This document shows positions 161-12,170 of a stretch of DNA of 13,117 bases, piece after piece. Source of the DNA: Escherichia coli (lineage in GTDB: Bacteria; Pseudomonadota; Gammaproteobacteria; Enterobacterales; Enterobacteriaceae); assembly GCF_003334815.1 (NCBI RefSeq), contig NZ_QOWO01000058.1; one strand, written 5' to 3'. The translations under genes were made by a program, and so were the position numbers. The stretch's first letter is position 1, and every line of letters begins with the position of its first letter. The notes beneath the pieces are model-generated. The model did no database searches, had not been told where the DNA came from, and saw nothing but the letters and a program-made list of their open reading frames with translations.

Positions 161-493
161 GTGAGTGATAGTGCAGTAAGAAAGAAAAGTGAGGTACGGC
201 AAAAGACAGTTGTCAGAACACTCAGATTCTCTCCTGTTGAGGATGAAACCATCAGGAAAAAAGCTGAAGATTCCGGACTTACTGTATCTGCTTACATCCG
301 AAATGCAGCACTGAATAAGCGAATTAACTCCCGTACAGATGATGCTTTTCTGAAGGAGTTAATGAGACTGGGAAGGATGCAGAAGCATCTGTTTGTTCAG
401 GGAAAAAGAACCGGTGACAAGGAATACGCAGAAGTACTTGTTGCCATAACCGAACTTACAAATACATTGCGTAAACAGTTAATGGAAGGTTGA
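161..493 (+). CDS. nikA: Relaxosome accessory protein NikA (ribbon-helix-helix, oriT-binding), 110 aa
   Basis: GTG start at 161 preceded by SD TAAGGAG (148-154); stop TGA 491-493. 110-aa basic protein directly upstream of the relaxase gene; size and position match NikA of IncI1 R64. Confidence 0.88.
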   Translation: MSDSAVRKKSEVRQKTVVRTLRFSPVEDETIRKKAEDSGLTVSAYIRNAALNKRINSRTDDAFLKELMRLGRMQKHLFVQGKRTGDKEYAEVLVAITELTNTLRKQLMEG

Positions 494-503
494 GGATTCT
501 CCG

Positions 504-3203
504 GTGAATGCAGTCATTCCGAAAAAGAGAAGGGACGGCAAGTCTTCGTTCGAAGACCTGGTGTCCTACGTCTCTGTCCGGGATGACATGACCGATGAGG
601 AACTGAATTTATCTTCTTCTTCGCAGGCTGAACAACCGCACCGGAGCCGCTTCAGTCGTCTTGTTGATTATGCAACACGCCTTCGAAATGAATCATTCGT
701 GGCACTGGTTGATGTCATGAAGGACGGCTGCGAATGGGTTAACTTTTATGGTGTGACCTGTTTTCACAACTGTACATCTCTTGAAACTGCCGCTGCAGAT
801 ATGGAGTACATTGCACAGCAGGCACACTATGCGAAAGATAATACTGATCCTGTTTTTCACTACATTCTTTCCTGGCAGGCCCATGAAAGCCCGCGTCCGG
901 AACAGATTTATGACAGTGTACGCCATACCCTGAAATCTCTCGGGCTGGGTGAACATCAGTATGTCTCTGCCGTGCATACCGATACTGATAACCTGCATGT
1001 TCACGTTGCGGTCAACCGGGTGCATCCGGTTACAGGTTATCTCAATTGCCTTTCATGGAGTCAGGAAAAACTCAGCCGTGCCTGCCGTGAGCTTGAACTG
1101 AAGCATGGTTTTGCTCCGGATAACGGTTGCTGGGTCCATGCGCCGGGAAATCGTATCGTTCGCAAAACTGCCGTTGAACGTGATCGCCAGAACGCTTGGA
1201 CACGCGGAAAAAAACAAACTTTTCGCGAGTATGTTGCGCAGACAGCGGTAGCTGGTTTACGCAGTGAACCTGTACATGACTGGTTATCCCTGCATCGTCG
1301 TCTTGCTGAAGATGGTCTGTACCTGTCTCAGATGGACGGAAAATTTCTGGTGATGGATGGCTGGGATCGCAACAGGGAAGGTGTACAGCTTGACTCGTTT
1401 GGCCCTTCCTGGTGTGCAGAAAAACTCATGAAAAAAATGGGTGACTACACGCCAGTACCAAAAGACATTTTCAGCCAGGTGGAAGCACCAGGACGCTATA
1501 ATCCGGACTTCATTGCAGCTGATGTTCGCCCGGAAAAAATCGCTGAAACAGAAAGTCTGCAGCAGTATGCCTGTCGTCATCTTGGAGAACGTCTGCCGGA
1601 AATGGCACGGGAAGGACGGCTGGAAAACTGCCAGGCTATTCACCGCACACTGGCTGAAGCGGGATTATGGATGCGTGTTCAGCATGGTCACCTGGTTATC
1701 TGTGACGGTTATGATCATAACCAGACTCCCGTTCGTGCTGACAGCGTATGGTCACTGCTGACGCTCGACAATGTGAATCAACTCGATGGTGGCTGGCAGC
1801 CTGTACCAACAGATATTTTCCGCCAGGTTACGCCAACAGAACGCTTCCGTGGTCGTCGTATGGAGAGCTGTCCTGCGACCGATAAAGAATGGCACCGTAT
1901 GCGTACAGGTACGGGGCCGCAGGGGGCTATCAAACGCGAACTGTTTTCTGACAAAGAAAGTCTGTGGGGATACAGCATCAGCCATTGTAGCCCTCAGATT
2001 GAAGAAATGATCACACAGGGTGAGTTTACCTGGCAGCGTTGTCATGAGCTGTTTGCACAACAGGGACTGATGCTACAGAAACAACATCACGGGCTTGTTG
2101 TCGTTGATGCCTTTAATCATGAGCAAACGCCGGTGAAAGCCAGCAGCATTCATCCTGATCTGACACTGGGGCGTGCGGAGCCACAGGCCGGACCTTTTGT
2201 GAGTGCCCCAGCAGATTTGTTTGACAGGGTGCAACCTGAAAATCGCTATAACCCGGAGCTGGCTGTCAGTGACAGGTACGGGGTCAGCAGTAAACGTGAT
2301 CCAATGCTGCGCCGGCAGCGACGTGAAGCCAGGGCTGAGGCCCGTGCTGACCTGCGTGCCCGCTATCTGGCATGGCGTGAACAATGGCGTAAACCAGATC
2401 TGCGTTATGGGGAACGTTGTCGGGAAATTCATCAGGCATGCCGTCTGCGGAAGTCACACATTCGTGCGCAGTACGATGATCCGGCATTACGTAAGCTGCA
2501 TTATCACATTGCAGAAGTTCAGCGAATGCAGGCATTGATCAGGCTGAAAGAAGACATCAGGGATGAGCGACAGAAACTTATTGCTGACGGGAAGTGGTAT
2601 CCACCCTCTTACCGTCAGTGGGTCGAAATTCAGGCTGCTCAGGGAGACAGGGCTGCTGTATCGCAGCTGAGAGGCTGGGATTATCGCGATCGCCGTAAAG
2701 ACAAGTCACGCACAACGACGACAGACCGCTGTGTCGTGCTTTGTGAACCGGGCGGAACGCCGGTATACGGTAATACCGGTGATCTCGAGGCCCGTCTGCA
2801 GAAGAACGGGAGTGTTCGTTTCCGTGACCGTCGGACGGGAGAGTTGGTCTGTACGGATTATGGTGACAGGGTTGTTTTCCGTAATCACCATGACCGCAAT
2901 GCGCTGGCAGATAAACTAGATTTGATTGCACCTGTATTGTTTGAGCGTGATCCCAGAATGGGCTTTGAACCAGAAGGAAACGATGGACAGTTTAATCAGG
3001 TCTTTGCTGAAATGGTGGCATGGTACAATGTGACGGGATTCTCTGAACATGGAAATTACGTTATTACTCGACCGGACGTAGATCAGCACAGGGAAGTGAG
3101 TGAGCGGGGCTATCGCAATTACATGGATAGTAACACTTACAGAGATGGAGCTCAGCCAGTTCAGGATAGTGAGAATCGCTGGGAACCTCCAACACCGGTG
3201 TAA
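504..3203 (+). CDS. nikB: Conjugative relaxase NikB (MOB-P family), 899 aa
   Basis: GTG start at 504 with GAGGA (492-496) upstream; stop TAA 3201-3203. Contains the MOB-P histidine-triad motif HTDTDNLHVHVAVNRVHP (compare RP4 TraI HxDxxxxHxH) and an N-terminal Tyr-containing region (DLVSYVSV). The 899-aa length agrees with R64 NikB. Confidence 0.93.
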   Translation: MNAVIPKKRRDGKSSFEDLVSYVSVRDDMTDEELNLSSSSQAEQPHRSRFSRLVDYATRLRNESFVALVDVMKDGCEWVNFYGVTCFHNCTSLETAAADMEYIAQQAHYAKDNTDPVFHYILSWQAHESPRPEQIYDSVRHTLKSLGLGEHQYVSAVHTDTDNLHVHVAVNRVHPVTGYLNCLSWSQEKLSRACRELELKHGFAPDNGCWVHAPGNRIVRKTAVERDRQNAWTRGKKQTFREYVAQTAVAGLRSEPVHDWLSLHRRLAEDGLYLSQMDGKFLVMDGWDRNREGVQLDSFGPSWCAEKLMKKMGDYTPVPKDIFSQVEAPGRYNPDFIAADVRPEKIAETESLQQYACRHLGERLPEMAREGRLENCQAIHRTLAEAGLWMRVQHGHLVICDGYDHNQTPVRADSVWSLLTLDNVNQLDGGWQPVPTDIFRQVTPTERFRGRRMESCPATDKEWHRMRTGTGPQGAIKRELFSDKESLWGYSISHCSPQIEEMITQGEFTWQRCHELFAQQGLMLQKQHHGLVVVDAFNHEQTPVKASSIHPDLTLGRAEPQAGPFVSAPADLFDRVQPENRYNPELAVSDRYGVSSKRDPMLRRQRREARAEARADLRARYLAWREQWRKPDLRYGERCREIHQACRLRKSHIRAQYDDPALRKLHYHIAEVQRMQALIRLKEDIRDERQKLIADGKWYPPSYRQWVEIQAAQGDRAAVSQLRGWDYRDRRKDKSRTTTTDRCVVLCEPGGTPVYGNTGDLEARLQKNGSVRFRDRRTGELVCTDYGDRVVFRNHHDRNALADKLDLIAPVLFERDPRMGFEPEGNDGQFNQVFAEMVAWYNVTGFSEHGNYVITRPDVDQHREVSERGYRNYMDSNTYRDGAQPVQDSENRWEPPTPV

Positions 3204-3228: not shown

Positions 3229-3801
3229 ATGGCTTATGTCGATGATTTTAAAGAAGCAATAATCAGGACTCGGCGGTTACAACTTGCGCAACCCGTTGAT
3301 TTATGTGAGATGCATACTCGCATAATGAACGATAAACGAATCCGCCATTTGGGAGGAATTATACGTCCTGTACTGGATCTGAATTCTGGGTATGAACAAC
3401 TGGTTGCGCGATGTATGCCTGTTCATCTTCAAGCCAGACCTTTGGTTGAAGAATGGCTGGGATGTCCTGTTTATTTTACGTTGGGATGGATTGATGATGG
3501 GACCCCAAAAGGTATGTTCAGGTTTGATGAGGACTTTATTACTGATACATTGAAAAATGGTTATACAGGAGATACTGTCAATCTTCATGCATGGCTAACT
3601 TTACCTAGTATGGAAATTATAGATATCACATTATCAACAACAATTTCTATGTTGCAGGGGCATAAGAATCAGTTAGGCGGTGTTATTATCAAGAGAGCTG
3701 ATGATATTAAAGGCTTCTCATATAAGCCAATGCTTATTGGTGATGAATTCCTGTTAAAATCTGGTATATTGCATAAGTTTACATATCTAGAATTGAACTA
3801 G
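3229..3801 (+). CDS. Hypothetical protein, 190 aa, hydrophilic, no recognised domain
   Basis: ATG at 3229 with GGGAG (3218-3222) 6-7 nt upstream; the longer ORF-track start at 3100 overlaps the nikB 3' end and has no RBS. Stop TAG 3799-3801. AT-rich codon usage like the adjacent microcin island. Convergent with mcpB. Confidence 0.6.
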   Translation: MAYVDDFKEAIIRTRRLQLAQPVDLCEMHTRIMNDKRIRHLGGIIRPVLDLNSGYEQLVARCMPVHLQARPLVEEWLGCPVYFTLGWIDDGTPKGMFRFDEDFITDTLKNGYTGDTVNLHAWLTLPSMEIIDITLSTTISMLQGHKNQLGGVIIKRADDIKGFSYKPMLIGDEFLLKSGILHKFTYLELN

Positions 3802-3850
3802 TGTTTTTTAAATAAACTGGTTTTTTGACGTTCTTATCTCTGTTCAGAAA

Positions 3851-6040
3851 TCACCTCCTGTTGGGATGATTATTTATATTATGAGTTCTGACAGGTCGAT
3901 ATTTTATTTCCGAAAAGTGACCATCTCTCAGATACAGAACTCTGTCTGCGGATGCTATTGTTTCTGGTCGATGAGCTATTAACAGAACAGGAATTCCGAG
4001 TTGGCGTAATGTCTGGCTTATTTCTATTTCACTTTCCACATCAAGATGACTGGTTGCTTCGTCCAGTAATAATAGACTAGGTTTTTTATACAGTGCTCTT
4101 GCCAGTAGAATACGTTGCTTCTGACCACCGGAAAGTCCCCCCCCGGTTTCTCCAAGCAATGTTTGATAGCCCATTGGCATTGCCATAATATCACTGTCTA
4201 TAAGTGCCAGACTTGCGCATTTACGCATGTGTTCATGATCTCTAATTTCGCTAAAAAACATTATATTATCAGCTATAGAACCTTTGAAAAGATAGTCATC
4301 TTGCAATACAGTGCCAATTCGTTGACGAACCTGAAAATAATCAGAATGTGTATGTGGTATGCCAAATGCATTAATTCTTCCTTCACTGGGTGTATGAATC
4401 CCAAGAATAAGCTTTACCAATGTTGATTTGCCACATCCTGATTTACCTGTTATTGCTAATATTTCTCCAGGAAAGAGCATTAGTGACGCGTTATCCAATA
4501 TGGGTTTATCTGCGCCCTTATGGCTAAATGTTATTTTTTCGATAAGTAATGGTGGATGGGTATTATCATATTTATGTTCTCTGTACTGGCTTGCAGATAT
4601 TGTTTCATTATGGTTTGCCCAATGGTGCTGATTCTGGTGACCTTCCTGTGGTGTTAGCACAATATCGGCAAGTCTCTCGTTATAAACATCAAGCATGCGC
4701 CAGGAAAAAAAGTTATCAGTCAGATTGCTTATACTGGATGAAAAACGCATCTGATAGGATAAGTAAGCAACCAACATACCCACGGTAAATGTCCCATCCA
4801 GCACTTCTACTGCACCCTGCCACAAAATAATGGCTGAAACTACACTTTCCGTCAGTGTATGCGTCAGCTCATAGCTCATTTGTAAACGATTCTGGCGTAG
4901 CTGTGTGTTTCTGCGGGTAACGTTGAGGTTCAGCCAGGCCGCTTCTCTGTGAATAGTTACACCGTTGATTCTCAGACTCTGAATGCCGTTAAGGGTTTCG
5001 AGAAAATGCCCCGACTCCTTAGTTCCTGCATCCCAGACATCTTCAACAGATTGCCGTAAAGCCGGATACCACAATGCTCTCAGTGCGCCATATATAATAG
5101 CTGCAATTACTGCGATTAATGTCATTCCTGGACTATACAACAGCATCATGCAAAGAGCAGTCACAATAAGTAGCATATCCAGAATGCCTTCAAGAACCTG
5201 CGTTGTCAGCGCCTGCTGGATTATATCTACTGCTTCAAAACGGGCATTAATACTTCCTTTACTTCGGGCATCGAACCATGCAAGAGGGAGTCTTACAAGA
5301 TGATGGAAAACTCTGGCAGTCCATTGCATGTTAAAATTGACTGATAAACTGATCGTTGCCCATTGTCGTGCCAGGGAGAGTAATAATTGTATGAGTGATA
5401 ACAACAGTAGTGCCACTATAATGACATACAACAGACTTCTGTCTGCTGCAACCAGAACTTCATCAATTACCAGTTGATTAAGAAGTGGACCACCTAAAGC
5501 CAGAATCTCAAGGGCCAGAGCAAAAATAATAATTTTTGTCATTGATGCTAAAAGCCCCGGGGTTTTCCCTGTCAGTTGGCGCAGGTGGATTTTTTTTCTC
5601 TCGTTCCGGGGGGTGAAATCACTGGCTGGAGTTAATTCCAGTGCCACTCCTGTAAAATGCTTACCTGCGTCCAACAGACTTATTGTAATTTTTCCTCTGT
5701 CCGGATCATGGATGTATAACCGGTTTCCCCGAACTTTATGGAGAACGACGAAATGGTTCATATCCCAGTGCAGAATAGATGGAAGATTAAGACACCTCAG
5801 ATCTTCGGGTTCCAGACGAACTGCACGTGATGATAAATGGATGGACGCTGCACATTCGATCAACCTTTGTAGCGTCATTCCCTGAATACCTATATTGAAA
5901 CGTTCCCGTAATGTCGATAAATCTGTTTTCAGTCCATGCCAGCAGGCAATCATAGCCAGACACGCCAGACCGCATTCAGCTGATTCGGTTTGACGGATAA
6001 CGGGTAGTTGTTTCCTTACTTTCCAGTTTATTGATTCCAT
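3851..6040 (-). CDS. mcpB: Microcin ABC exporter with N-terminal C39 double-glycine peptidase domain (CvaB-like)
   Basis: C39 peptidase motifs (QTESAECGLACLAM catalytic Cys, HFVVLH His), a transmembrane domain, Walker A GKSGCGKST, ABC signature LSGGQKQR, Walker B LLLLDEATS, H-loop IAHR. Start chosen at the ATG 6040-6038, which overlaps the upstream gene stop as TAATG and has a GGA-containing SD (AAAGGAAA). The ORF-track start at 6088 adds 16 aa and lacks an SD. N-terminus aligns with CvaB (PVIxQTExAECGLACLAM). Confidence 0.92.
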   Translation of the reverse strand: MESINWKVRKQLPVIRQTESAECGLACLAMIACWHGLKTDLSTLRERFNIGIQGMTLQRLIECAASIHLSSRAVRLEPEDLRCLNLPSILHWDMNHFVVLHKVRGNRLYIHDPDRGKITISLLDAGKHFTGVALELTPASDFTPRNERKKIHLRQLTGKTPGLLASMTKIIIFALALEILALGGPLLNQLVIDEVLVAADRSLLYVIIVALLLLSLIQLLLSLARQWATISLSVNFNMQWTARVFHHLVRLPLAWFDARSKGSINARFEAVDIIQQALTTQVLEGILDMLLIVTALCMMLLYSPGMTLIAVIAAIIYGALRALWYPALRQSVEDVWDAGTKESGHFLETLNGIQSLRINGVTIHREAAWLNLNVTRRNTQLRQNRLQMSYELTHTLTESVVSAIILWQGAVEVLDGTFTVGMLVAYLSYQMRFSSSISNLTDNFFSWRMLDVYNERLADIVLTPQEGHQNQHHWANHNETISASQYREHKYDNTHPPLLIEKITFSHKGADKPILDNASLMLFPGEILAITGKSGCGKSTLVKLILGIHTPSEGRINAFGIPHTHSDYFQVRQRIGTVLQDDYLFKGSIADNIMFFSEIRDHEHMRKCASLALIDSDIMAMPMGYQTLLGETGGGLSGGQKQRILLARALYKKPSLLLLDEATSHLDVESEIEISQTLRQLGIPVLLIAHRPETIASADRVLYLRDGHFSEIKYRPVRTHNINNHPNRR

Positions 6041-7293
6041 TACAGATTTCCTTTCATGCTCCATAGTGGCTCTGTCAGCCATTCCCATAAATGACGAGTA
6101 TCAAGGTTGACGTCTCCTTCCAGAGTCATGCCTGGTCTTAGCGGTTCTTTTTTTCCGTATGCAAATATAAATGTATTTTCAGGCTCAACAATAACGCGAT
6201 AATGCCCTTCGTTTTCTTTCCATGTGACGGGTGAAACTGGTAATAAGTCGGAAGGAGCCAGAGTCGTATGACTGATTTCACGAATTGTGCCGTACTGGAT
6301 ACCAAATTTCTGATAAGGGAAGGCCGAAAACTTCAGAGATACTCGTTGACCTGGTCGGATAAAACCGGCTTTCTGGCTGGTAGCATAAAGCTCAATTTGT
6401 AAATGAGCATTATCGGGAATGAGAGTCATGACCGGTTCTGATGCTTTCACAGACTGCCCCTGTTTGATCAGTACAGCAGCAATAGTCCCGGATACTGGAG
6501 CCCTCAGTGTAAATTTTTCTTGTCCGGCCAGTTCATCCTGTTGTTGTTTTAGCACCTGCAATTGTCTGTCGAGTTCTGCTTTACGGCTTTTCCCCTGAAC
6601 AATAAGATGATTTAGTTCATCTTTGGCTGTGTCCATTGCAGTATGCAACTGGAGAAGCCCCTGACGCTGATCTTCAACGTTTTGTTGAGCGGCAGAAACA
6701 TCAATTTGTTTCTGTTGGAATTCGATATCTGACACATAATGCGTACCAGCCAATTTTTTATAGCGTTCCATGACGGATATAGCCAGTTCTGCCTGACGTT
6801 CAGCAAGCTGAAGTCTTTGTTCTGCACTTCTTATTTGTGGCTCAAGTGATACCATCCTTTGCCGTATGGCTTCCTGTTGTTGACTATTATCTCGCGACTC
6901 AAAGGATTGCTGGGAGGCCAGCATGATAGACTGGGTTTTCAGGGAAATACTCATCGTTGCTAATGTGCCAGTTCCGTTACCGTTATAATGTTCTCCACTT
7001 ATATGATAGAGTTGTGTCCCTGCAGTTACGTGTTCTCCTTCGGATACAGTCAGTTGTGTTACATATCCTGCATATTGAGGAATTATTTTTACCAGTCCTG
7101 ATGAGGGCATGACGATACCTGTAAGATGCGCTTTCCTTGTATAGCTACCGTAATAGATGAATACAGTCAGACTTAACATAATGAATAATGTAACTGTTGC
7201 ACATACGGATAGGCTAAATGATGTTGGTAAAATAATGTCACCATATTCAGTGTCATTATGATGTTCTATTGCTTCACTTCTGAATATATTCAT
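6040..7293 (-). CDS. mcpD: HlyD/CvaA-family membrane fusion protein for microcin export
   Basis: N-terminus MNIFRSEAIEHH aligns with CvaA MFRQDALENRK, followed by a single TM helix and a long coiled-coil Q/E-rich periplasmic region. Start taken as ATG 7293-7291; the ORF-track start at 7329 is a TTG with no SD. Stop TAA 6042-6040 overlaps the mcpB start. Confidence 0.88.
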   Translation of the reverse strand: MNIFRSEAIEHHNDTEYGDIILPTSFSLSVCATVTLFIMLSLTVFIYYGSYTRKAHLTGIVMPSSGLVKIIPQYAGYVTQLTVSEGEHVTAGTQLYHISGEHYNGNGTGTLATMSISLKTQSIMLASQQSFESRDNSQQQEAIRQRMVSLEPQIRSAEQRLQLAERQAELAISVMERYKKLAGTHYVSDIEFQQKQIDVSAAQQNVEDQRQGLLQLHTAMDTAKDELNHLIVQGKSRKAELDRQLQVLKQQQDELAGQEKFTLRAPVSGTIAAVLIKQGQSVKASEPVMTLIPDNAHLQIELYATSQKAGFIRPGQRVSLKFSAFPYQKFGIQYGTIREISHTTLAPSDLLPVSPVTWKENEGHYRVIVEPENTFIFAYGKKEPLRPGMTLEGDVNLDTRHLWEWLTEPLWSMKGNL

Positions 7294-7395
7294 TCTTTTT
7301 AATACAATAACTAACCTTTCTGTCAACAAGAGGGGTTGGTTGAATAATATTGATATTTGATATACATCTTACCTGTGTGATGTTAAAGTTTTATA

Positions 7396-8031
7396 CTATA
7401 ATATATTTAACAATATAACAAAGCCGTTTATCCCCGCATGTAACAGCATTGGATAGAAAATCCCCTTACTGCAAATTCTTATATTCAACAATAACATTGA
7501 CATAATAAACAGAATAATTTGATCAGCTACATTATAATACTGCGGATGCATCAGGCAGAAAAATAAAGATGTACACACGCAGGGGGTGAATAATTCTTTT
7601 TTATAAGTCGCACATAGAAGGCCGAATAAACATGTTCGGTAAACAATTTCTTCATAATACGGAACTATCAGGACCAGTATAAATATTTCAATCCAATTAA
7701 GTGAAGTTGATTCACTATTGTTTAAATTGTCTCTATAAGCAAAAATAAGCAGTTGCATGAGAGCAATTACAGCAAATGATATTACTAATAGCTTTAATGT
7801 TTTCGCATTTGTCTTTATGGTGATTTTACAACCTGGTATTCTTCTTAAGTAAAAAATATAAAATGAAGTTGATATTAAAATTTCAGTAATAAAGACAAAG
7901 GAAAATGCCAGGTCCAAACCAATATATTGTATGGTGAATGCTGGTGTGAATATCACAACTGTTGATATAACAACAAGTAGAAGAAACGCTATCGCATTAT
8001 CTTTGCTGTATTTATATATGTTATCATTCAT
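7396..8031 (-). CDS. mcpA: CPBP-family (CAAX protease / Abi-like) intramembrane metalloprotease homologue, 211 aa
   Basis: Polytopic membrane protein with the three CPBP motifs: EExxxR (EEIVYR), FxxxH (FFCLMH) and HxxxN (HAGIN). Very AT-rich. ATG at 8031-8029 lies 4 nt after the mcpI stop (TAG 8038-8036). Confidence 0.85.
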   Translation of the reverse strand: MNDNIYKYSKDNAIAFLLLVVISTVVIFTPAFTIQYIGLDLAFSFVFITEILISTSFYIFYLRRIPGCKITIKTNAKTLKLLVISFAVIALMQLLIFAYRDNLNNSESTSLNWIEIFILVLIVPYYEEIVYRTCLFGLLCATYKKELFTPCVCTSLFFCLMHPQYYNVADQIILFIMSMLLLNIRICSKGIFYPMLLHAGINGFVILLNIL

Positions 8032-8035
8032 AATG

Positions 8036-8236
8036 CTATTTCGCGGAGATTGTTCTTATTTTTTCTATGATATAGTCCATGAATCTTGCTGTGGAAAAAA
8101 GAGTGATCAGCATGACTACAATCTTTGAAAACTCGGAAGGGAGTGAAAACCAGTATAAATCAATAACAGAGGAGCCACTCAATAGCGCAAATCCCAGTAA
8201 CAAACCACATATAAAGGAAAGTAATTTAATAAACAT
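8036..8236 (-). CDS. mcpI: Small two-helix membrane protein, probable microcin immunity protein (66 aa)
   Basis: Small hydrophobic ORF immediately downstream of the precursor gene, the usual position of class II microcin immunity genes. Start chosen at ATG 8236-8234 (MFIKLL...) because GGAGG lies 8-9 nt upstream; the ORF-track start at 8251 would add 5 aa (MEGAT). Confidence 0.7.
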   Translation of the reverse strand: MFIKLLSFICGLLLGFALLSGSSVIDLYWFSLPSEFSKIVVMLITLFSTARFMDYIIEKIRTISAK

Positions 8237-8260
8237 AGTAGCGCCCTCCATTATATCTAT

Positions 8261-8623
8261 TTATCGGTTACATGTTCCGCCAACATTATTACCTGAACAA
8301 CTACTGGAACTTCCTCTGTTACCACATCCATTTCCACTACCATGATCTGAGAGACATTGACCAACAACGGCTCCACCAATGGTACCTCTTGCCATTCCTA
8401 TGGGACCTCCTTTGATCGCACCACCAATCATTCCACTAAATACAGCGTTAGCGCATTTTACAGTGCTTGGATCACTATAAATATGAGTTGGTGCGTTTCG
8501 ACCCAGTGAGTTACGAGCCCCACTGGAACGCTCATTACGGGGGCCACCTTCAAAGTTGCTGTTTGCGTTTCCTCCGCTGACAAGCGTTATCTCATCTAAA
8601 GTTAATTCTCTTATACCTGCCAT
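8261..8623 (-). CDS. mcpM: Class II microcin precursor with double-glycine leader (120 aa), matches microcin PDI McpM from memory
   Basis: N-terminal leader MAGIRELTLDEITLVSGG has the ExLxxxExxxVSGG double-glycine pattern ending at G17-G18, with a second GA site at G35/A36. Gly-rich mature region with GxxxG-like repeats (GGAIKGGPIGMARGTIGGAVVG) and Cys at 57, 90, 100, 109, 118. SD GGGGAAA upstream of ATG 8623-8621. First gene of an operon ending in a C39-ABC exporter. Confidence 0.88.
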   Translation of the reverse strand: MAGIRELTLDEITLVSGGNANSNFEGGPRNERSSGARNSLGRNAPTHIYSDPSTVKCANAVFSGMIGGAIKGGPIGMARGTIGGAVVGQCLSDHGSGNGCGNRGSSSSCSGNNVGGTCNR

Positions 8624-8780
8624 ATCATATTTCCCCTATTGGTTGTTTGTTATTTTGTGCGTTCAAGATAGCCAATAACAAAAATGTAATGAAAGTGAAA
8701 TTGTGTGATTAAATGTAAATATGTGAAAATATTTGTATGTTCTTGAGGTTGTGTGATTACAAAAATATCATCGTGTGAAG
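8624..8780 (-). promoter_or_regulatory. AT-rich promoter/operator region of the microcin operon
   Basis: About 160 bp AT-rich leader between the trbC terminator and the mcpM start. Read on the - strand it contains five TTYAC-type half-sites phased at about 10 bp (TTTCAC, TTTACA, aaTCAC, TTTCAC, aTTACA; + coordinates about 8685-8728). On the + strand TTGTGTGATTA occurs twice (8701-8711, 8749-8759). Exact -35/-10 not assigned. Confidence 0.5.
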
Positions 8781-8815: not shown

Positions 8816-11107
8816 TCAGTACATTCCGTCCCAGTCCGGACGGTTGGTTTTTTTATGATGAAACCCGTTTACAGGACGCCCTGTCAGGTGGTTATTGTCC
8901 TGTGGAAGCGTTAACAGGTTTATACCTGCTCTTTCTGCTCTCACTGATATCTGATTTTCCTCTTTTGTTTCAGGTAGTTCTGGTCTGTTCAGCGTGATAT
9001 AGCGAATTCGTCGCTCTTCCCGTGTGGTCGTTTTAAGCGTATTCACCGCTGTTTCCCACAAGGCACTTTCACGTGCGTTGATATCCGTGTCGTACTCTTC
9101 CAGCATTGCCATAGCCGCCTGACGTCCTGCAATGCGTTGCTGGAATGTATCCACGATCGTGTGCGGCTCTGTGCGAATTTTTCGTCTTTTTCTGGAGGGT
9201 TTTGCAGTCAGGACGCCAATGATGGCACTGACATTTTCCGGTGACGGTATTCGACGTTGAGTAGTACGGGGAACAAGACGGCGGAGACGGTCCAGGCGTG
9301 GCGCATCCACGCTGATATACCTGTTTATAACAACGGGATCGCTGCTGCAGCTTTTCTCATTGTCAGGGATGAAGAATGATGCTGATGGTACGGTTTCTCC
9401 CCGGAAAATAGAAAAGAACTCGCCAGGATGAAGTTCAATCAACTCCTGAACATCTATCTTACTTTCCATCAGGATGCTGATTTGTGGGCTGTCAATCCAT
9501 GATTCACCAAATATGCCGTCCTGACGCTGCAGGTTGTTCATCCTCGCCCTGGCTTCTTCACCGGCGGCGCTTTTCAGCGTTCTGGCCGTACTGCCCTCGC
9601 TGACAATCCTGCCGGCAAATTTTGTCCCCGTGTTCTGCATCAGTGTTGCAGTATTCGTGGCTGTTGTCTGTCCTTCTATACGTTCCTGGTCCTGTGCCAT
9701 CAAAATCAGAGCAAAATCCAGTGAACGCACCTGAGTGGCTTCCACAGCAATACGGTCTGTATAGTATGCCCCCACTTCATCAAGGAAACACAGATAAGGG
9801 AAACGCCCCTTATATTTTTTGACTTCCAGTGCATCGGAATCAGTTCCTTCGAGGCGGTAGCCCAAATCACGGGCGAGAATCATACTTTTCTGGGTGATAA
9901 ACATTCGTCCCAGAGCAGACGTTGTATGCGCTGATGTATCCAGAGCGGGGATCATTACCATCAGAATCCTGTCGCTGTGAATGCTGTCACGGATATCGAT
10001 ATCACCGGAATCTTCAGCAAAAATATCCCCGAATGCTTCCGTGAATGTGCTGAAAGTTTCAGAAAACTGCCCGGAGAGATAAGCATGTTGTTTTCTGGGT
10101 TCTTCCGTCCAGGCTGATGGTGTCCTGACCAGCGACAGGTCGAAACCGGGAACGTCCTGAAGGTAGTTACGTAACGGTGCGATAGCTTCTTCCGGCCACT
10201 GATCATCGAGGCCACGACAGTAAAGTTTGGCCATCCCTTCGAGAGTCATATGTTCACGGAGCATCTGCAGCGACATTGTTTTGCCTTCGCGCACACACCA
10301 GAATTTAGTACCAAATACCAGTGCCTTGTTCATGGCAATGGCCCGGGACTGCCACTCGCCCCCCTGGACGTTCTGGGGCAACATTGACTGCATTGTCTCC
10401 GCTGTGAATGCCTCAGTGCTGTAACAGAAGGGATTCCAGGTATTTGACTGAGGTCGTGTTTTTTCACCACTCAGAATGATTTCACTGCGGGATTTTCCTC
10501 CGTTCATGAAGTTGATGACTTCCACATCGTCTTCACGGCCAAAGCGTCTGGCCAGATACCAGATCGTTCTTGCCGTATCATTCTGTGCCTTGCCATCGAC
10601 AAGGGTGAATCCTCTTGCCCAGCAAAGCGGGTTAATCGCCCAGGCAAAGATGGTTTCCGTTTTACCACCACCGGTGGTGGCGAAAAACATTATATGGCGG
10701 GTCAGATCGTCCATACTCAGCCACAACTCCCGACCTATATCCCTGACGCGTTGATAACCAACATAAAATATGCCGCTGGCCGGTGACTCCAGGATGACCT
10801 CATACTGAAACAGAGTTGGCCAGAAGCTGAAAAGGCTTCTTTTAATCATTCTGTCCTGTGACGGGTCAGCACATTCCAGCGTCATGGGCATACGAAGAGG
10901 GCAGCGCCATCGCTGCAGACTAAATACCAGCATCGTTATCAGTGTGAACAACAGACATGCCGGTAATGCAAGTGGCCAGATAAAACTGGCCACAAGACTT
11001 GCCACCAGGCAAAAGCCATAGATATTGAGACTCTGGAGTGCATTCCAGACAGGATTTCCCCAGGCTGTACGGTGTAAAAGCTCGGGGTTAACGCGATGTT
11101 CACTCAT
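8816..11107 (-). CDS. trbC: Type IVB coupling-protein-like ATPase TrbC (DotL/IcmO homologue), 763 aa
   Basis: N-terminal TM helices followed by an ATPase domain with P-loop FFATTGGGKTE. ATG 11107-11105 overlaps the trbB 3' end by 8 nt. Position after trbB and size agree with R64 TrbC. Confidence 0.88.
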   Translation of the reverse strand: MSEHRVNPELLHRTAWGNPVWNALQSLNIYGFCLVASLVASFIWPLALPACLLFTLITMLVFSLQRWRCPLRMPMTLECADPSQDRMIKRSLFSFWPTLFQYEVILESPASGIFYVGYQRVRDIGRELWLSMDDLTRHIMFFATTGGGKTETIFAWAINPLCWARGFTLVDGKAQNDTARTIWYLARRFGREDDVEVINFMNGGKSRSEIILSGEKTRPQSNTWNPFCYSTEAFTAETMQSMLPQNVQGGEWQSRAIAMNKALVFGTKFWCVREGKTMSLQMLREHMTLEGMAKLYCRGLDDQWPEEAIAPLRNYLQDVPGFDLSLVRTPSAWTEEPRKQHAYLSGQFSETFSTFTEAFGDIFAEDSGDIDIRDSIHSDRILMVMIPALDTSAHTTSALGRMFITQKSMILARDLGYRLEGTDSDALEVKKYKGRFPYLCFLDEVGAYYTDRIAVEATQVRSLDFALILMAQDQERIEGQTTATNTATLMQNTGTKFAGRIVSEGSTARTLKSAAGEEARARMNNLQRQDGIFGESWIDSPQISILMESKIDVQELIELHPGEFFSIFRGETVPSASFFIPDNEKSCSSDPVVINRYISVDAPRLDRLRRLVPRTTQRRIPSPENVSAIIGVLTAKPSRKRRKIRTEPHTIVDTFQQRIAGRQAAMAMLEEYDTDINARESALWETAVNTLKTTTREERRIRYITLNRPELPETKEENQISVRAERAGINLLTLPQDNNHLTGRPVNGFHHKKTNRPDWDGMY

Positions 11108-12170
11108 GGCCAGACTCGCTGTCGGTGGTTTTCAGGAATAAATTAAGCGTGCCAGTTTCCTGCAGAATTCCAGTAGGCAGATGCCAGCCCGTGTCGGACA
11201 GCACCCATGGGGTACCGGCAAATCCGAACTTACGGAAGGCGACATTGTTAACATCAATCGCAGCTCTGGCTGCTTTCAGGCATGTTTCATCTGCAGGCGT
11301 TGTTTCTTCTGATGGCGTCATCATTCCGTTATCTGCGGAATACAGTCGGTGCCAGCCGGCAGCACGTTTCTGAGCATCTTTTTCACACAGCAGTGGTGCC
11401 ACACGGTCGGTGGATTCCTCTCCACCAATAACTGAAACCGGGTAGATAACGACATTGAAGTCGCTGGCCAGGCGTTTTAAGGCCGGCTCCAGAAGTCTGC
11501 AGTTAGGACAGGCAGGATCGAGAAATGCGAACAGGGTTCGTTCATGACCGGATGACAGGTTGATGGTAAACATGCCCCGATCGGCGTTCCGCTTCAGAAC
11601 AGTAGCCAGATTATGTCGCGCAGCTGCGGCTTCCGGATTTTTGCTTGTGATTGTTTTCTCCGGTACCTGGACGTCTTTTTTCGGGGGAACCGGGAGTTGA
11701 ATGCCTTCATTTAATGGCACAGTGTGATTCAGGTGAGGGGGAAGCAGTCGTGGCTCACCTGCTGTCTGTACTGCTTCAGGCGTTGTATCATCCCAGAATA
11801 CACGATCAACATAGCGGAACAGAGAGAAGCCAATCGTTGCCATTACGAACAGCACAACGCTGGCGATTATGCCACGGAACAAAGGTGTTCTGCTGAAGCG
11901 GCGTTCCATCAGATATTCAAGGCGCAGGCAGGAATCAATAGCTGTAAGTATCTGGTCAGCGTTATGCTCCTGTTTATCAATCAGGAGGGTTTCTTTGTTA
12001 CGGGTGCCCATGGCGTCAAAGGCTATATGAATCAGTTGATTATTTCGTGTTACCAGCCCTGACAGGGCATCCCGTGGAAGGACGGCAATAATTTCTGTCC
12101 TGCCATCCGGCCAGATTGCCTGCACGGAAATATGTTTTGCAATACGTGTTGCAAAGTACTCGATTGTCAT
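11100..12170 (-). CDS. trbB: Thioredoxin-fold protein TrbB (CxxC = CPNC) with N-terminal domain and single TM helix, 356 aa
   Basis: ATG 12170-12168 with SD GGAGAA 8 nt upstream; central hydrophobic helix (LFRGIIASVVLFVMATIGFSLF); C-terminal domain with CPNC active-site motif typical of DsbC/thioredoxin-like conjugation proteins. Confidence 0.82.
   Translation of the reverse strand: MTIEYFATRIAKHISVQAIWPDGRTEIIAVLPRDALSGLVTRNNQLIHIAFDAMGTRNKETLLIDKQEHNADQILTAIDSCLRLEYLMERRFSRTPLFRGIIASVVLFVMATIGFSLFRYVDRVFWDDTTPEAVQTAGEPRLLPPHLNHTVPLNEGIQLPVPPKKDVQVPEKTITSKNPEAAAARHNLATVLKRNADRGMFTINLSSGHERTLFAFLDPACPNCRLLEPALKRLASDFNVVIYPVSVIGGEESTDRVAPLLCEKDAQKRAAGWHRLYSADNGMMTPSEETTPADETCLKAARAAIDVNNVAFRKFGFAGTPWVLSDTGWHLPTGILQETGTLNLFLKTTDSESGHE

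Follow-up and report, generated by a model that had tools for sequence, protein, structure and literature searches.

Termination-reinitiation between neighbouring genes of Escherichia coli operates when stop and start lie between -8 and about +6 nt apart, and coupling drops steeply with growing spacing (PMC6728339; PMC10666635). Of five native overlapping E. coli pairs tested, four were coupled and one, bioBF, was not (PMC6728339), and the subunits of heteromeric complexes are enriched for short gene spacings. The coupled pairs hyfH-hyfI, ydbH-ynbE, menD-menH and astD-astB (Huber et al. 2019, 2023) come from the same organism group as the DNA described here and have the same geometries (-1 TAATG, -8, few-nt spacer), with a Shine-Dalgarno (SD) sequence embedded in the upstream coding sequence; likewise, McpD and McpB function together in a complex. 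Unlike these overlapping pairs, mcpI/mcpA has a +4 gap.

The microcin PDI cluster of E. coli-25 (PMC5311971) comprises these five genes in identical order (mcpM, mcpI, mcpA, mcpD, mcpB), and we found no difference from the cluster studied here. In that system, qPCR shows mcpM, mcpI and mcpA to be co-regulated, and the three are treated as one OmpR-regulated unit, with mcpD-mcpB regulated separately; mcpI has an immunity role and mcpA a role in microcin synthesis, mcpB is required for McpM cleavage and export, and experiments place the mcpB- and mcpD-dependent cut in McpM at G17/G18 (PMC5311971). The colicin V pair cvaA-cvaB, which encodes a class IIa microcin exporter, shows the same order, an HlyD-type adaptor followed by a C39-peptidase ABC exporter, and here too stop and start overlap. 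McpB and CvaB share 39% identity and the catalytic motif QTE(S/T)AECGLAC (QTESAECGLAC in McpB). However, the cvaA/cvaB overlap is 8 nt (ATGACTAA) as against 1 nt for mcpD/mcpB, CvaB has about 9 extra N-terminal residues before the catalytic Cys, and in the ColV region shown the immunity and export genes are not separated by an mcpA-like CPBP gene. Finally, trbABC of the IncI1 plasmid R64 and its IncK and IncI-gamma counterparts, compared on annotated plasmids, share genes, order and trbC start with our locus, and trbB and trbC overlap. Overlap length differs, 20 nt in IncK2/Z and IncI-gamma/K1 against 8 nt here, with the trbC ATG conserved. The relatives carry a GAGGA SD; at our locus, a 3-nt deletion leaves a shorter one.

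The window, the whole 13,117-nt stretch of E. coli DNA analysed, is IncI1 plasmid sequence, with the published microcin PDI cluster sitting between nikB and trbC; the cluster is 99-100% identical to that of many IncI1 plasmids. As reference for gene models we used the PGAP annotation of the identical RefSeq plasmid NZ_CP024481.1, which has the same starts as the first-pass annotation and also names nikA, nikB, trbA, trbB and trbC. The genes concerned are:

3851..6040, minus strand: mcpB, ABC exporter with a C39 peptidase domain, 729 aa from ATG 6040 (ABC transporter in PGAP)
6040..7293, minus strand: mcpD, HlyD-family periplasmic adaptor, 417 aa from ATG 7293 (HlyD in PGAP; NCBIfam TIGR01843)
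7396..8031, minus strand: mcpA, CPBP-family intramembrane protease-like protein, 211 aa (PGAP; weak NCBIfam CPBP hits)
8036..8236, minus strand: mcpI, immunity protein, 66 aa, likely start ATG 8236
8261..8623, minus strand: mcpM, microcin PDI precursor, 120 aa, with a double-glycine leader (…LVSGG)
8816..11107, minus strand: trbC, 763 aa (PGAP; NF041447 TrbC_conju)
11100..12170, minus strand: trbB, 356 aa (PGAP; DsbC-family name in the annotation of relatives)

TrbC scored 1043 bits against NF041447 TrbC_conju (cut-off 800), an equivalog-level match, and the neighbours trbA/trbB and nikAB fit the IncI1 trbABC operon. McpB has an N-terminal C39 peptidase domain with its catalytic Cys, followed by ABC transmembrane and ATPase domains. 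It aligned to TIGR01193 bacteriocin_ABC over residues 17-709 (E 1.5e-89) and to TIGR03796 over residues 12-709 (E 2e-136), both with scores under the curated whole-family cut-offs, so that its membership is at the superfamily level. McpD matched TIGR01843 type_I_hlyD with E 1.2e-38 and 133 bits, below the 208-bit cut-off, and PGAP calls it an HlyD family secretion protein. The HlyD-family adaptor gene expected next to a class IIa microcin or double-glycine exporter thus lies beside mcpB, and the McpM N-terminus, MAGIRELTLDEITLVSGG, carries the double-glycine leader of an exporter substrate. An Rfam scan of the whole window returned no family at gathering score, and a search for terminal repeats flanking the microcin module gave none that was convincing.

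For mcpD, the TTG at 7329 that opens the ORF was passed over in favour of ATG 7293, on the basis of PGAP, TIGR01843 and the N-terminal alignment (MNIFRSEAIEHH against MDTFRNEALKHH of the relative L002). A sigma-70-like sequence, TTGACA-16-TATTAA, abuts this gene and ends 5 nt before ATG 7293; a promoter in this place would yield a leaderless mcpD-mcpB mRNA. We mention the candidate only in passing: its second hexamer has no T at position 6 and a consensus scan gave no call. For mcpI, ATG 8236 is likely to be the start, rather than the ORF's first ATG at 8251, judging from SD energy (GGAGG 8 nt upstream and an anti-SD duplex of -9.8 kcal/mol at 8236, +0.3 at 8251) and from the homologues L002, L016 and L017.

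Three stop/start junctions were compared with the systems above:

6038..6042, minus strand: mcpD/mcpB, TAATG, with TAA 6042-6040 and ATG 6040-6038 having one base in common (distance -1)
8029..8038, minus strand: mcpI/mcpA, TAG 8038-8036, spacer CATT, ATG 8031-8029 (gap of +4 nt)
11100..11107, minus strand: trbB/trbC, ATGAGTGA, with trbC ATG 11107-11105 and trbB TGA 11102-11100 (8-nt overlap)

The first-pass annotation had reported just these arrangements, the TAATG between HlyD-like gene and ABC exporter, the 4 nt between mcpI stop and mcpA start and the 8-nt trbB/trbC overlap, and each is present at those positions. Very probably, they are three ordinary tight junctions within two known operons, microcin PDI (mcpM-mcpI-mcpA, then mcpD-mcpB) and IncI1 trbA-trbB-trbC. 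None of them has space for a terminator and a promoter, and the 102-nt gap before mcpD, together with the tight junctions inside each unit, agrees with the two-unit regulation reported for microcin PDI (PMC5311971).

The mcpD/mcpB junction depends on where mcpB starts, as ATG 6040 lies in frame with a long ORF, 3851-6088, that holds four in-frame ATGs. Two features bear on the choice:

6049..6053, minus strand: AAGGA, Shine-Dalgarno-like, 8 nt before the mcpB ATG and within the last codons of mcpD (…AAA GGA AAT CTG TAA)
6041..6088, minus strand: 48-nt upstream stretch, dual-coding if mcpB began at 6088, which evolves as mcpD-only coding sequence

The best SD match among the four belongs to 6040 (anti-SD duplex -5.6 kcal/mol; +0.6, -3.3 and -2.1 for 6088, 6082 and 6064). 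It is also the only one conserved in two diverged relatives, L002 and L004, where AAAGGAAA is kept and the ATGs at 6088, 6082 and 6064 are GTG, GTG and CTG. Both L002 (76% nt) and L004 (80% aa) have the identical TAATG, as does a 98.7% variant. In the L002/L004 comparison, six of the seven differences within 6041..6088 fall on third positions of the mcpD frame; read in that frame, five changes are synonymous and two non-synonymous, as against one and five in the mcpB frame. The 98.7% variant has a single change in this stretch, at 6067, and it leaves the McpD residue unaltered. Moreover, a protein started at 6040 (MESINWK…) covers the NCBIfam bacteriocin/HlyB-type ABC profiles in full, the alignments opening at its residues 12-17, and public gene calls give the 729-aa McpB on 395 contigs. 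PGAP starts in the relatives are predictions too. Together, this evidence shows that mcpB starts at ATG 6040, the first base of which is also the last of the mcpD stop. The first-pass annotation had chosen the right starts over longer open-frame ones, as SD, conservation, substitutions, profiles and PGAP indicate, but its use of the overlaps themselves as support was circular, so that the start choice is carried by the independent evidence. Besides, a longer ORF start to reject existed for mcpB but not for mcpA (8031) or trbC (11107), each of which already uses the first start codon of its ORF.

Tight spacing of this sort is frequent. Of the 84 co-directional neighbour pairs of the reference plasmid, 27 overlap, ten of them at -1, ten at -4 and three at -8, and the three most frequent spacings in E. 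coli are -4, -1 and -8 (PMC10666635). The arrangements at the three junctions are therefore non-random against random sequence and typical against the genomic background: the feature is confirmed, but it is of an already known kind, the commonest packing of neighbouring bacterial genes. Among nine annotated adaptor/exporter pairs of the family (30-100% identity), seven overlap, cvaA/cvaB at -8, and gaps of 8 and 17 nt separate the genes of the remaining two, the whole range being -11 to +17. Spacings between immunity gene and mcpA in relatives are -4/+17, +9, -4/+8 and about +28 to +43 nt, with SD weak or none throughout. As geometry is not exactly conserved, selection seems to act on proximity and not on a particular overlap.

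The distances of -1, +4 and -8 all lie within the range of about -8 to +6 nt in which coupling occurs, and this geometry makes translational coupling by termination-reinitiation plausible at the junctions. A ribosome ending the upstream gene would reinitiate at the adjacent start codon, making translation of mcpB, mcpA and trbC wholly or partly dependent on that of mcpD, mcpI and trbB. Lacking an SD, mcpA would probably show the strongest dependence and mcpB, with an SD, only a partial one; with this reasonable SD at a good spacing, mcpB could initiate independently. Expression of the partners would be tied together without a defined stoichiometry, a tie that would suit McpD and McpB, which act as one export machine with TolC. 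The earlier reading of the overlaps as 'stoichiometric co-translation of precursor-handling components' went too far, since coupling sets the dependence of the downstream gene on the upstream one and no ratio, and since relatives vary from -11 to +17 (adaptor/exporter) and from about -4 to +40 (immunity/mcpA). We know of no complex between the immunity protein McpI and McpA.

The overlaps might instead be a by-product of operon compaction and of stop/start drift, with fresh ribosomes initiating each downstream gene, at the SD for mcpB and at A/U-rich unstructured RNA for mcpA. The AAGGA of mcpB at 8-nt spacing would suit such entry, as would the unstructured junctions, which new 30S subunits could enter; relatives differ in geometry, a third of the plasmid's neighbour pairs overlap whatever their function, and bioBF overlaps and yet is uncoupled (PMC6728339). 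However, mcpA is functional (PMC5311971) although its SD is absent in the window and, at the candidate starts of four relatives, absent or weak, four of five tested overlapping E. coli pairs are coupled (PMC6728339), and adaptor/exporter proximity is held over 30-100% identity. On this balance, compaction without coupling appears unlikely, though it deserves consideration.

Coupling by RNA unfolding, in which a hairpin would mask the downstream start until ribosomes translating the upstream gene open it, is a recognised mechanism in some coupled pairs (PMC12548453). We rejected it as very improbable here: 140-nt windows at the three junctions showed no significant structure and folded no better than shuffled controls (z = +0.70, +0.55, -0.02), and the SD and AUG of mcpB are mostly unpaired in the centroid structure. 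This lack of structure favours reinitiation over unfolding.

An independent mcpB start at ATG 6088 (or 6082/6064), with a 24-48 nt dual-coding overlap with mcpD and, for the extended form, the peptide MGMADRATMEHERKSV, would fit the ORF being open back to 6088, the 745-aa form picked by some gene callers (26 contigs) and, for 6064, an N-terminal length similar to that of CvaB (the family's catalytic Cys stands at positions 17-32, so that length alone did not decide against 6064), but it is hardly credible given the weak or absent SDs, the loss of all three ATGs in L002 and L004, substitutions that are silent in the mcpD frame but amino-acid-changing in that of mcpB, family profiles that require no extension, and the preference of PGAP and 395 contigs for 6040.

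Beyond annotation hygiene, the significance of these junctions is slight. The right gene models are the 729-aa McpB (6040), the 417-aa McpD (7293) and probably the 66-aa McpI (8236), and the 745-aa McpB of some gene calls is an over-extension. For engineering of microcin PDI export, it matters that the putative ribosome-binding site of mcpB falls within the 3' end of the mcpD coding sequence and that mcpA has none, so that splitting the genes or truncating the upstream one would likely alter downstream expression. As regards mcpA, the window has no SD before it (anti-SD duplex +0.1 kcal/mol), the candidate mcpA-like starts of four relatives have none or a weak one (+1.6 to -4.9), and in four of the five clusters compared the candidate start lies within -4 to +9 nt of the immunity-gene stop. 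Since mcpA has no ribosome-binding site of its own and its candidate start is close to the immunity stop, its synthesis might, as a tentative suggestion that we hold doubtful, depend strictly on the immunity gene being translated. If true, a built-in rule would operate in this microcin system: no microcin-activating component, here the CPBP-protease-like mcpA product, would be made before immunity has been translated.

By ORF listing, translation and comparison with annotated records, the window comes from an IncI1 conjugative plasmid and carries the following genes:

161-493, plus strand, nikA
504-3203, plus strand, nikB
3229-3801, plus strand, hypothetical gene
Microcin PDI cluster, minus strand, of five genes (mcpM, mcpI, mcpA, mcpD, mcpB):
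8623-8261, minus strand, mcpM
8236 or 8251 to 8036, minus strand, mcpI
8031-7396, minus strand, mcpA
7293-6040, minus strand, mcpD
6040-3851, minus strand, mcpB
11107-8816, minus strand, trbC
12170-11100, minus strand, trbB
From 12189 upward, minus strand, trbA (start only)

The microcin PDI cluster recurs at 99-100% identity on dozens of plasmids from E. coli and Salmonella. Its genes serve synthesis (mcpM, mcpA), immunity (mcpI) and export with TolC (mcpD, mcpB) (PMC5311971). The identical RefSeq plasmid, NZ_CP024481.1, annotates neither mcpM nor mcpI (8036-8623, minus), so that trbC directly follows the CPBP gene there; experiment has defined both mcpM and mcpI as genes (PMC5311971). In a cluster-free IncI1 plasmid, NZ_CP069544.1, the match to the window stops at 3821 and resumes at 8706, and only 11 nt (GAGCCGCTTAC) separate the two parts; the 4,884-bp module (3822-8705) is therefore a clean indel, with the gene that follows nikB on one side and the end of trbC on the other. 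The module's GC content ranges from 31 to 45%, while that of the backbone is about 50%, and no direct or inverted repeats were found flanking the module. The primary OmpR-binding region published for the mcpM promoter (-81 to -102 relative to the start codon) falls at 8704-8725, almost wholly on the backbone side of the boundary, in sequence common to the cluster-less plasmid; either the backbone supplied the OmpR site, or a deletion gave rise to the "empty" plasmid.

The three close junctions reported by the first-pass annotation are all present on the minus strand. The final A of the mcpD stop (TAA, 6042-6040) is also the first base of the mcpB ATG (6040-6038); the mcpI stop (TAG, 8038-8036) is separated by CATT from the mcpA ATG (8031-8029); and the trbC ATG (11107-11105) and trbB TGA (11102-11100) lie together in ATGAGTGA. 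PGAP places exactly the same boundaries on the identical RefSeq plasmid. Such junctions are not a chance outcome relative to random sequence, but they do not exceed the genomic background: of 84 neighbouring gene pairs on the same plasmid that run in one direction, 27 are annotated as overlapping (by 1 nt in ten cases, 4 nt in ten and 8 nt in three), and more than half of the 84 are no more than 20 nt apart. In E. coli K-12 the three commonest spacings are -4, -1 and -8 (minus, overlap; plus, gap), and the range from -8 to +6 takes in about 24% of unidirectional pairs (PMC10666635). All are short-overlap operon junctions of a known class, lying in a microcin cluster already published and in a known transfer operon, and no departure from expectation was found.

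It had also been argued that the overlaps support the chosen starts over longer ones. That argument is circular, although its conclusion holds for mcpB, whose ORF extends back to ATG 6088 and has two more in-frame ATGs, at 6082 and 6064. The start at 6040 is favoured by five independent lines of evidence. This start has AAGGA (6053-6049, 8 nt from the ATG) and an anti-SD pairing of -5.6 kcal/mol, against +0.6, -3.3 and -2.1 at 6088, 6082 and 6064. TAATG and AAAGGAAA are conserved in the diverged clusters of E. coli pSA31IncF (76% nt) and Enterobacter MGH3 (McpB 80% aa), where the three upstream ATGs read GTG, GTG and CTG. In the 48 nt upstream of 6040, six of seven differences occupy mcpD-frame third positions (5 synonymous/2 non-synonymous, versus 1/5 in the putative mcpB frame), and a 98.7% variant differs there at a single position, 6067, where only the mcpD frame reads the change as synonymous. 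NCBIfam bacteriocin-type ABC models begin aligning at residue 12-17 of the 6040-start McpB, which therefore needs no N-terminal extension. Finally, public gene calls give a 729-aa McpB on 395 contigs and a 745-aa McpB on 26. N-terminal length alone could not exclude 6064, because the catalytic Cys lies anywhere from position 17 to 32 in family members. For mcpA and trbC there was no longer start to reject, since no start codon precedes the chosen one in the ORF.

The adaptor-exporter spacing varies among relatives:

-1: window, pSA31IncF, Enterobacter, E. albertii
-8: ColV cvaA/cvaB, Pantoea piersonii
-11: Klebsiella
+8: Salmonella Infantis
+17: Pantoea agglomerans

Across 30-100% identity the two genes stay close, but their exact spacing differs. 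Among specific analogues, colicin V cvaA/cvaB, likewise overlapping, comes closest. The mcpD start itself is ATG 7293 and not TTG 7329 (minus; region 7293-7395), essentially without an SD (-0.9 kcal/mol). The stretch TTGACA-16 nt-TATTAA stops 5 nt short of this ATG, and pSA31IncF has TATATT 6 nt before its mcpD start. A leaderless mcpD-mcpB mRNA from a candidate promoter abutting the ATG would fit this arrangement; a consensus scan called no promoter at these hexamers, the second lacking T at position 6. Own, OmpR-independent regulation of mcpD and mcpB has been suggested (PMC5311971).

The immunity-mcpA spacing is likewise variable:

+4: window
-4 (ATGA), or +17 with the PGAP start: pSA31IncF
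+9: Citrobacter
-4 (GTGA) or +8: one Klebsiella cluster
about +28 to +43: another Klebsiella cluster

In all clusters compared, the SD of mcpA-type starts is weak or absent (+1.6 to -4.9 kcal/mol). Start calls for the SD-less mcpA are unstable: PGAP places the CPBP start of a Klebsiella relative (L017, 1333-1833) about 150 nt into the ORF, and in pSK6988_164k, the 98.7% variant, the annotated mcpA is limited to 363 nt from an internal start (3897-4259 of L019, window 7396-7758), which suggests a disrupted or mis-called gene. The first mcpI ATG (8251) has no SD, while the in-frame ATG 8236 (minus) has GGAGG at 8-nt spacing (-9.8 kcal/mol), and the pSA31IncF homologue is arranged likewise (ATG GGG GAT ACA ATG); the product is likely 66 aa (MFIKLL…), not 71.

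The trbC ATG is the same in the IncK2/Z and IncI-gamma/K1 relatives, where trbB stops 20 nt inside trbC, against 8 nt in IncI1, and a GAGGA SD is present. A 3-nt deletion upstream of the IncI1 ATG (window 11108-11125; around position 580 of these relatives, L013 and L014) weakens the SD to GCGAG (-3.1 kcal/mol). Within the last trbC codons lies a terminator-like hairpin (8826-8843, plus; CCGTCC-CAGTCC-GGACGG, then TTGGTTT), which in plasmids without the module would come after the nikB-side genes.

Coupling is currently explained by two models, unfolding of RNA and reinitiation or scanning by a ribosome at termination (PMC12548453). The regions around the three junctions folded no better than shuffled controls (z = +0.70, +0.55 and -0.02), giving no hint of a masked ribosome-binding site. 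The geometries lie within the E. coli range of efficient termination-reinitiation. In reporter tests of native overlapping E. coli pairs, four of five were coupled (one only by ~60%) and one was uncoupled; the loss of coupling was 80-100% at +38 nt and ranged from 5 to 70% at +2 nt (PMC6728339, PMC10666635). Because the junctions are unstructured, their geometry is favourable and reporters behave in this way, we infer that reinitiation is likely at all three; the SD-less mcpA would be the likeliest case, and for mcpB and trbC reinitiation is probably partial.

Stoichiometric co-translation, as first proposed, over-reads the junctions: coupling makes translation dependent, not equimolar. In solved assemblies, the adaptors and ABC transporters of type I secretion are not known to occur 1:1, and McpI and McpA are not known to form a complex. 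McpD and McpB do act together, and the idea is within the spirit of the literature, as E. coli genes for heteromeric-complex subunits are enriched in short spacings (30% versus 7%). The least ordinary reading is that mcpA translation may be obligatorily slaved to that of the immunity gene, which would, if true, be a modest finding.
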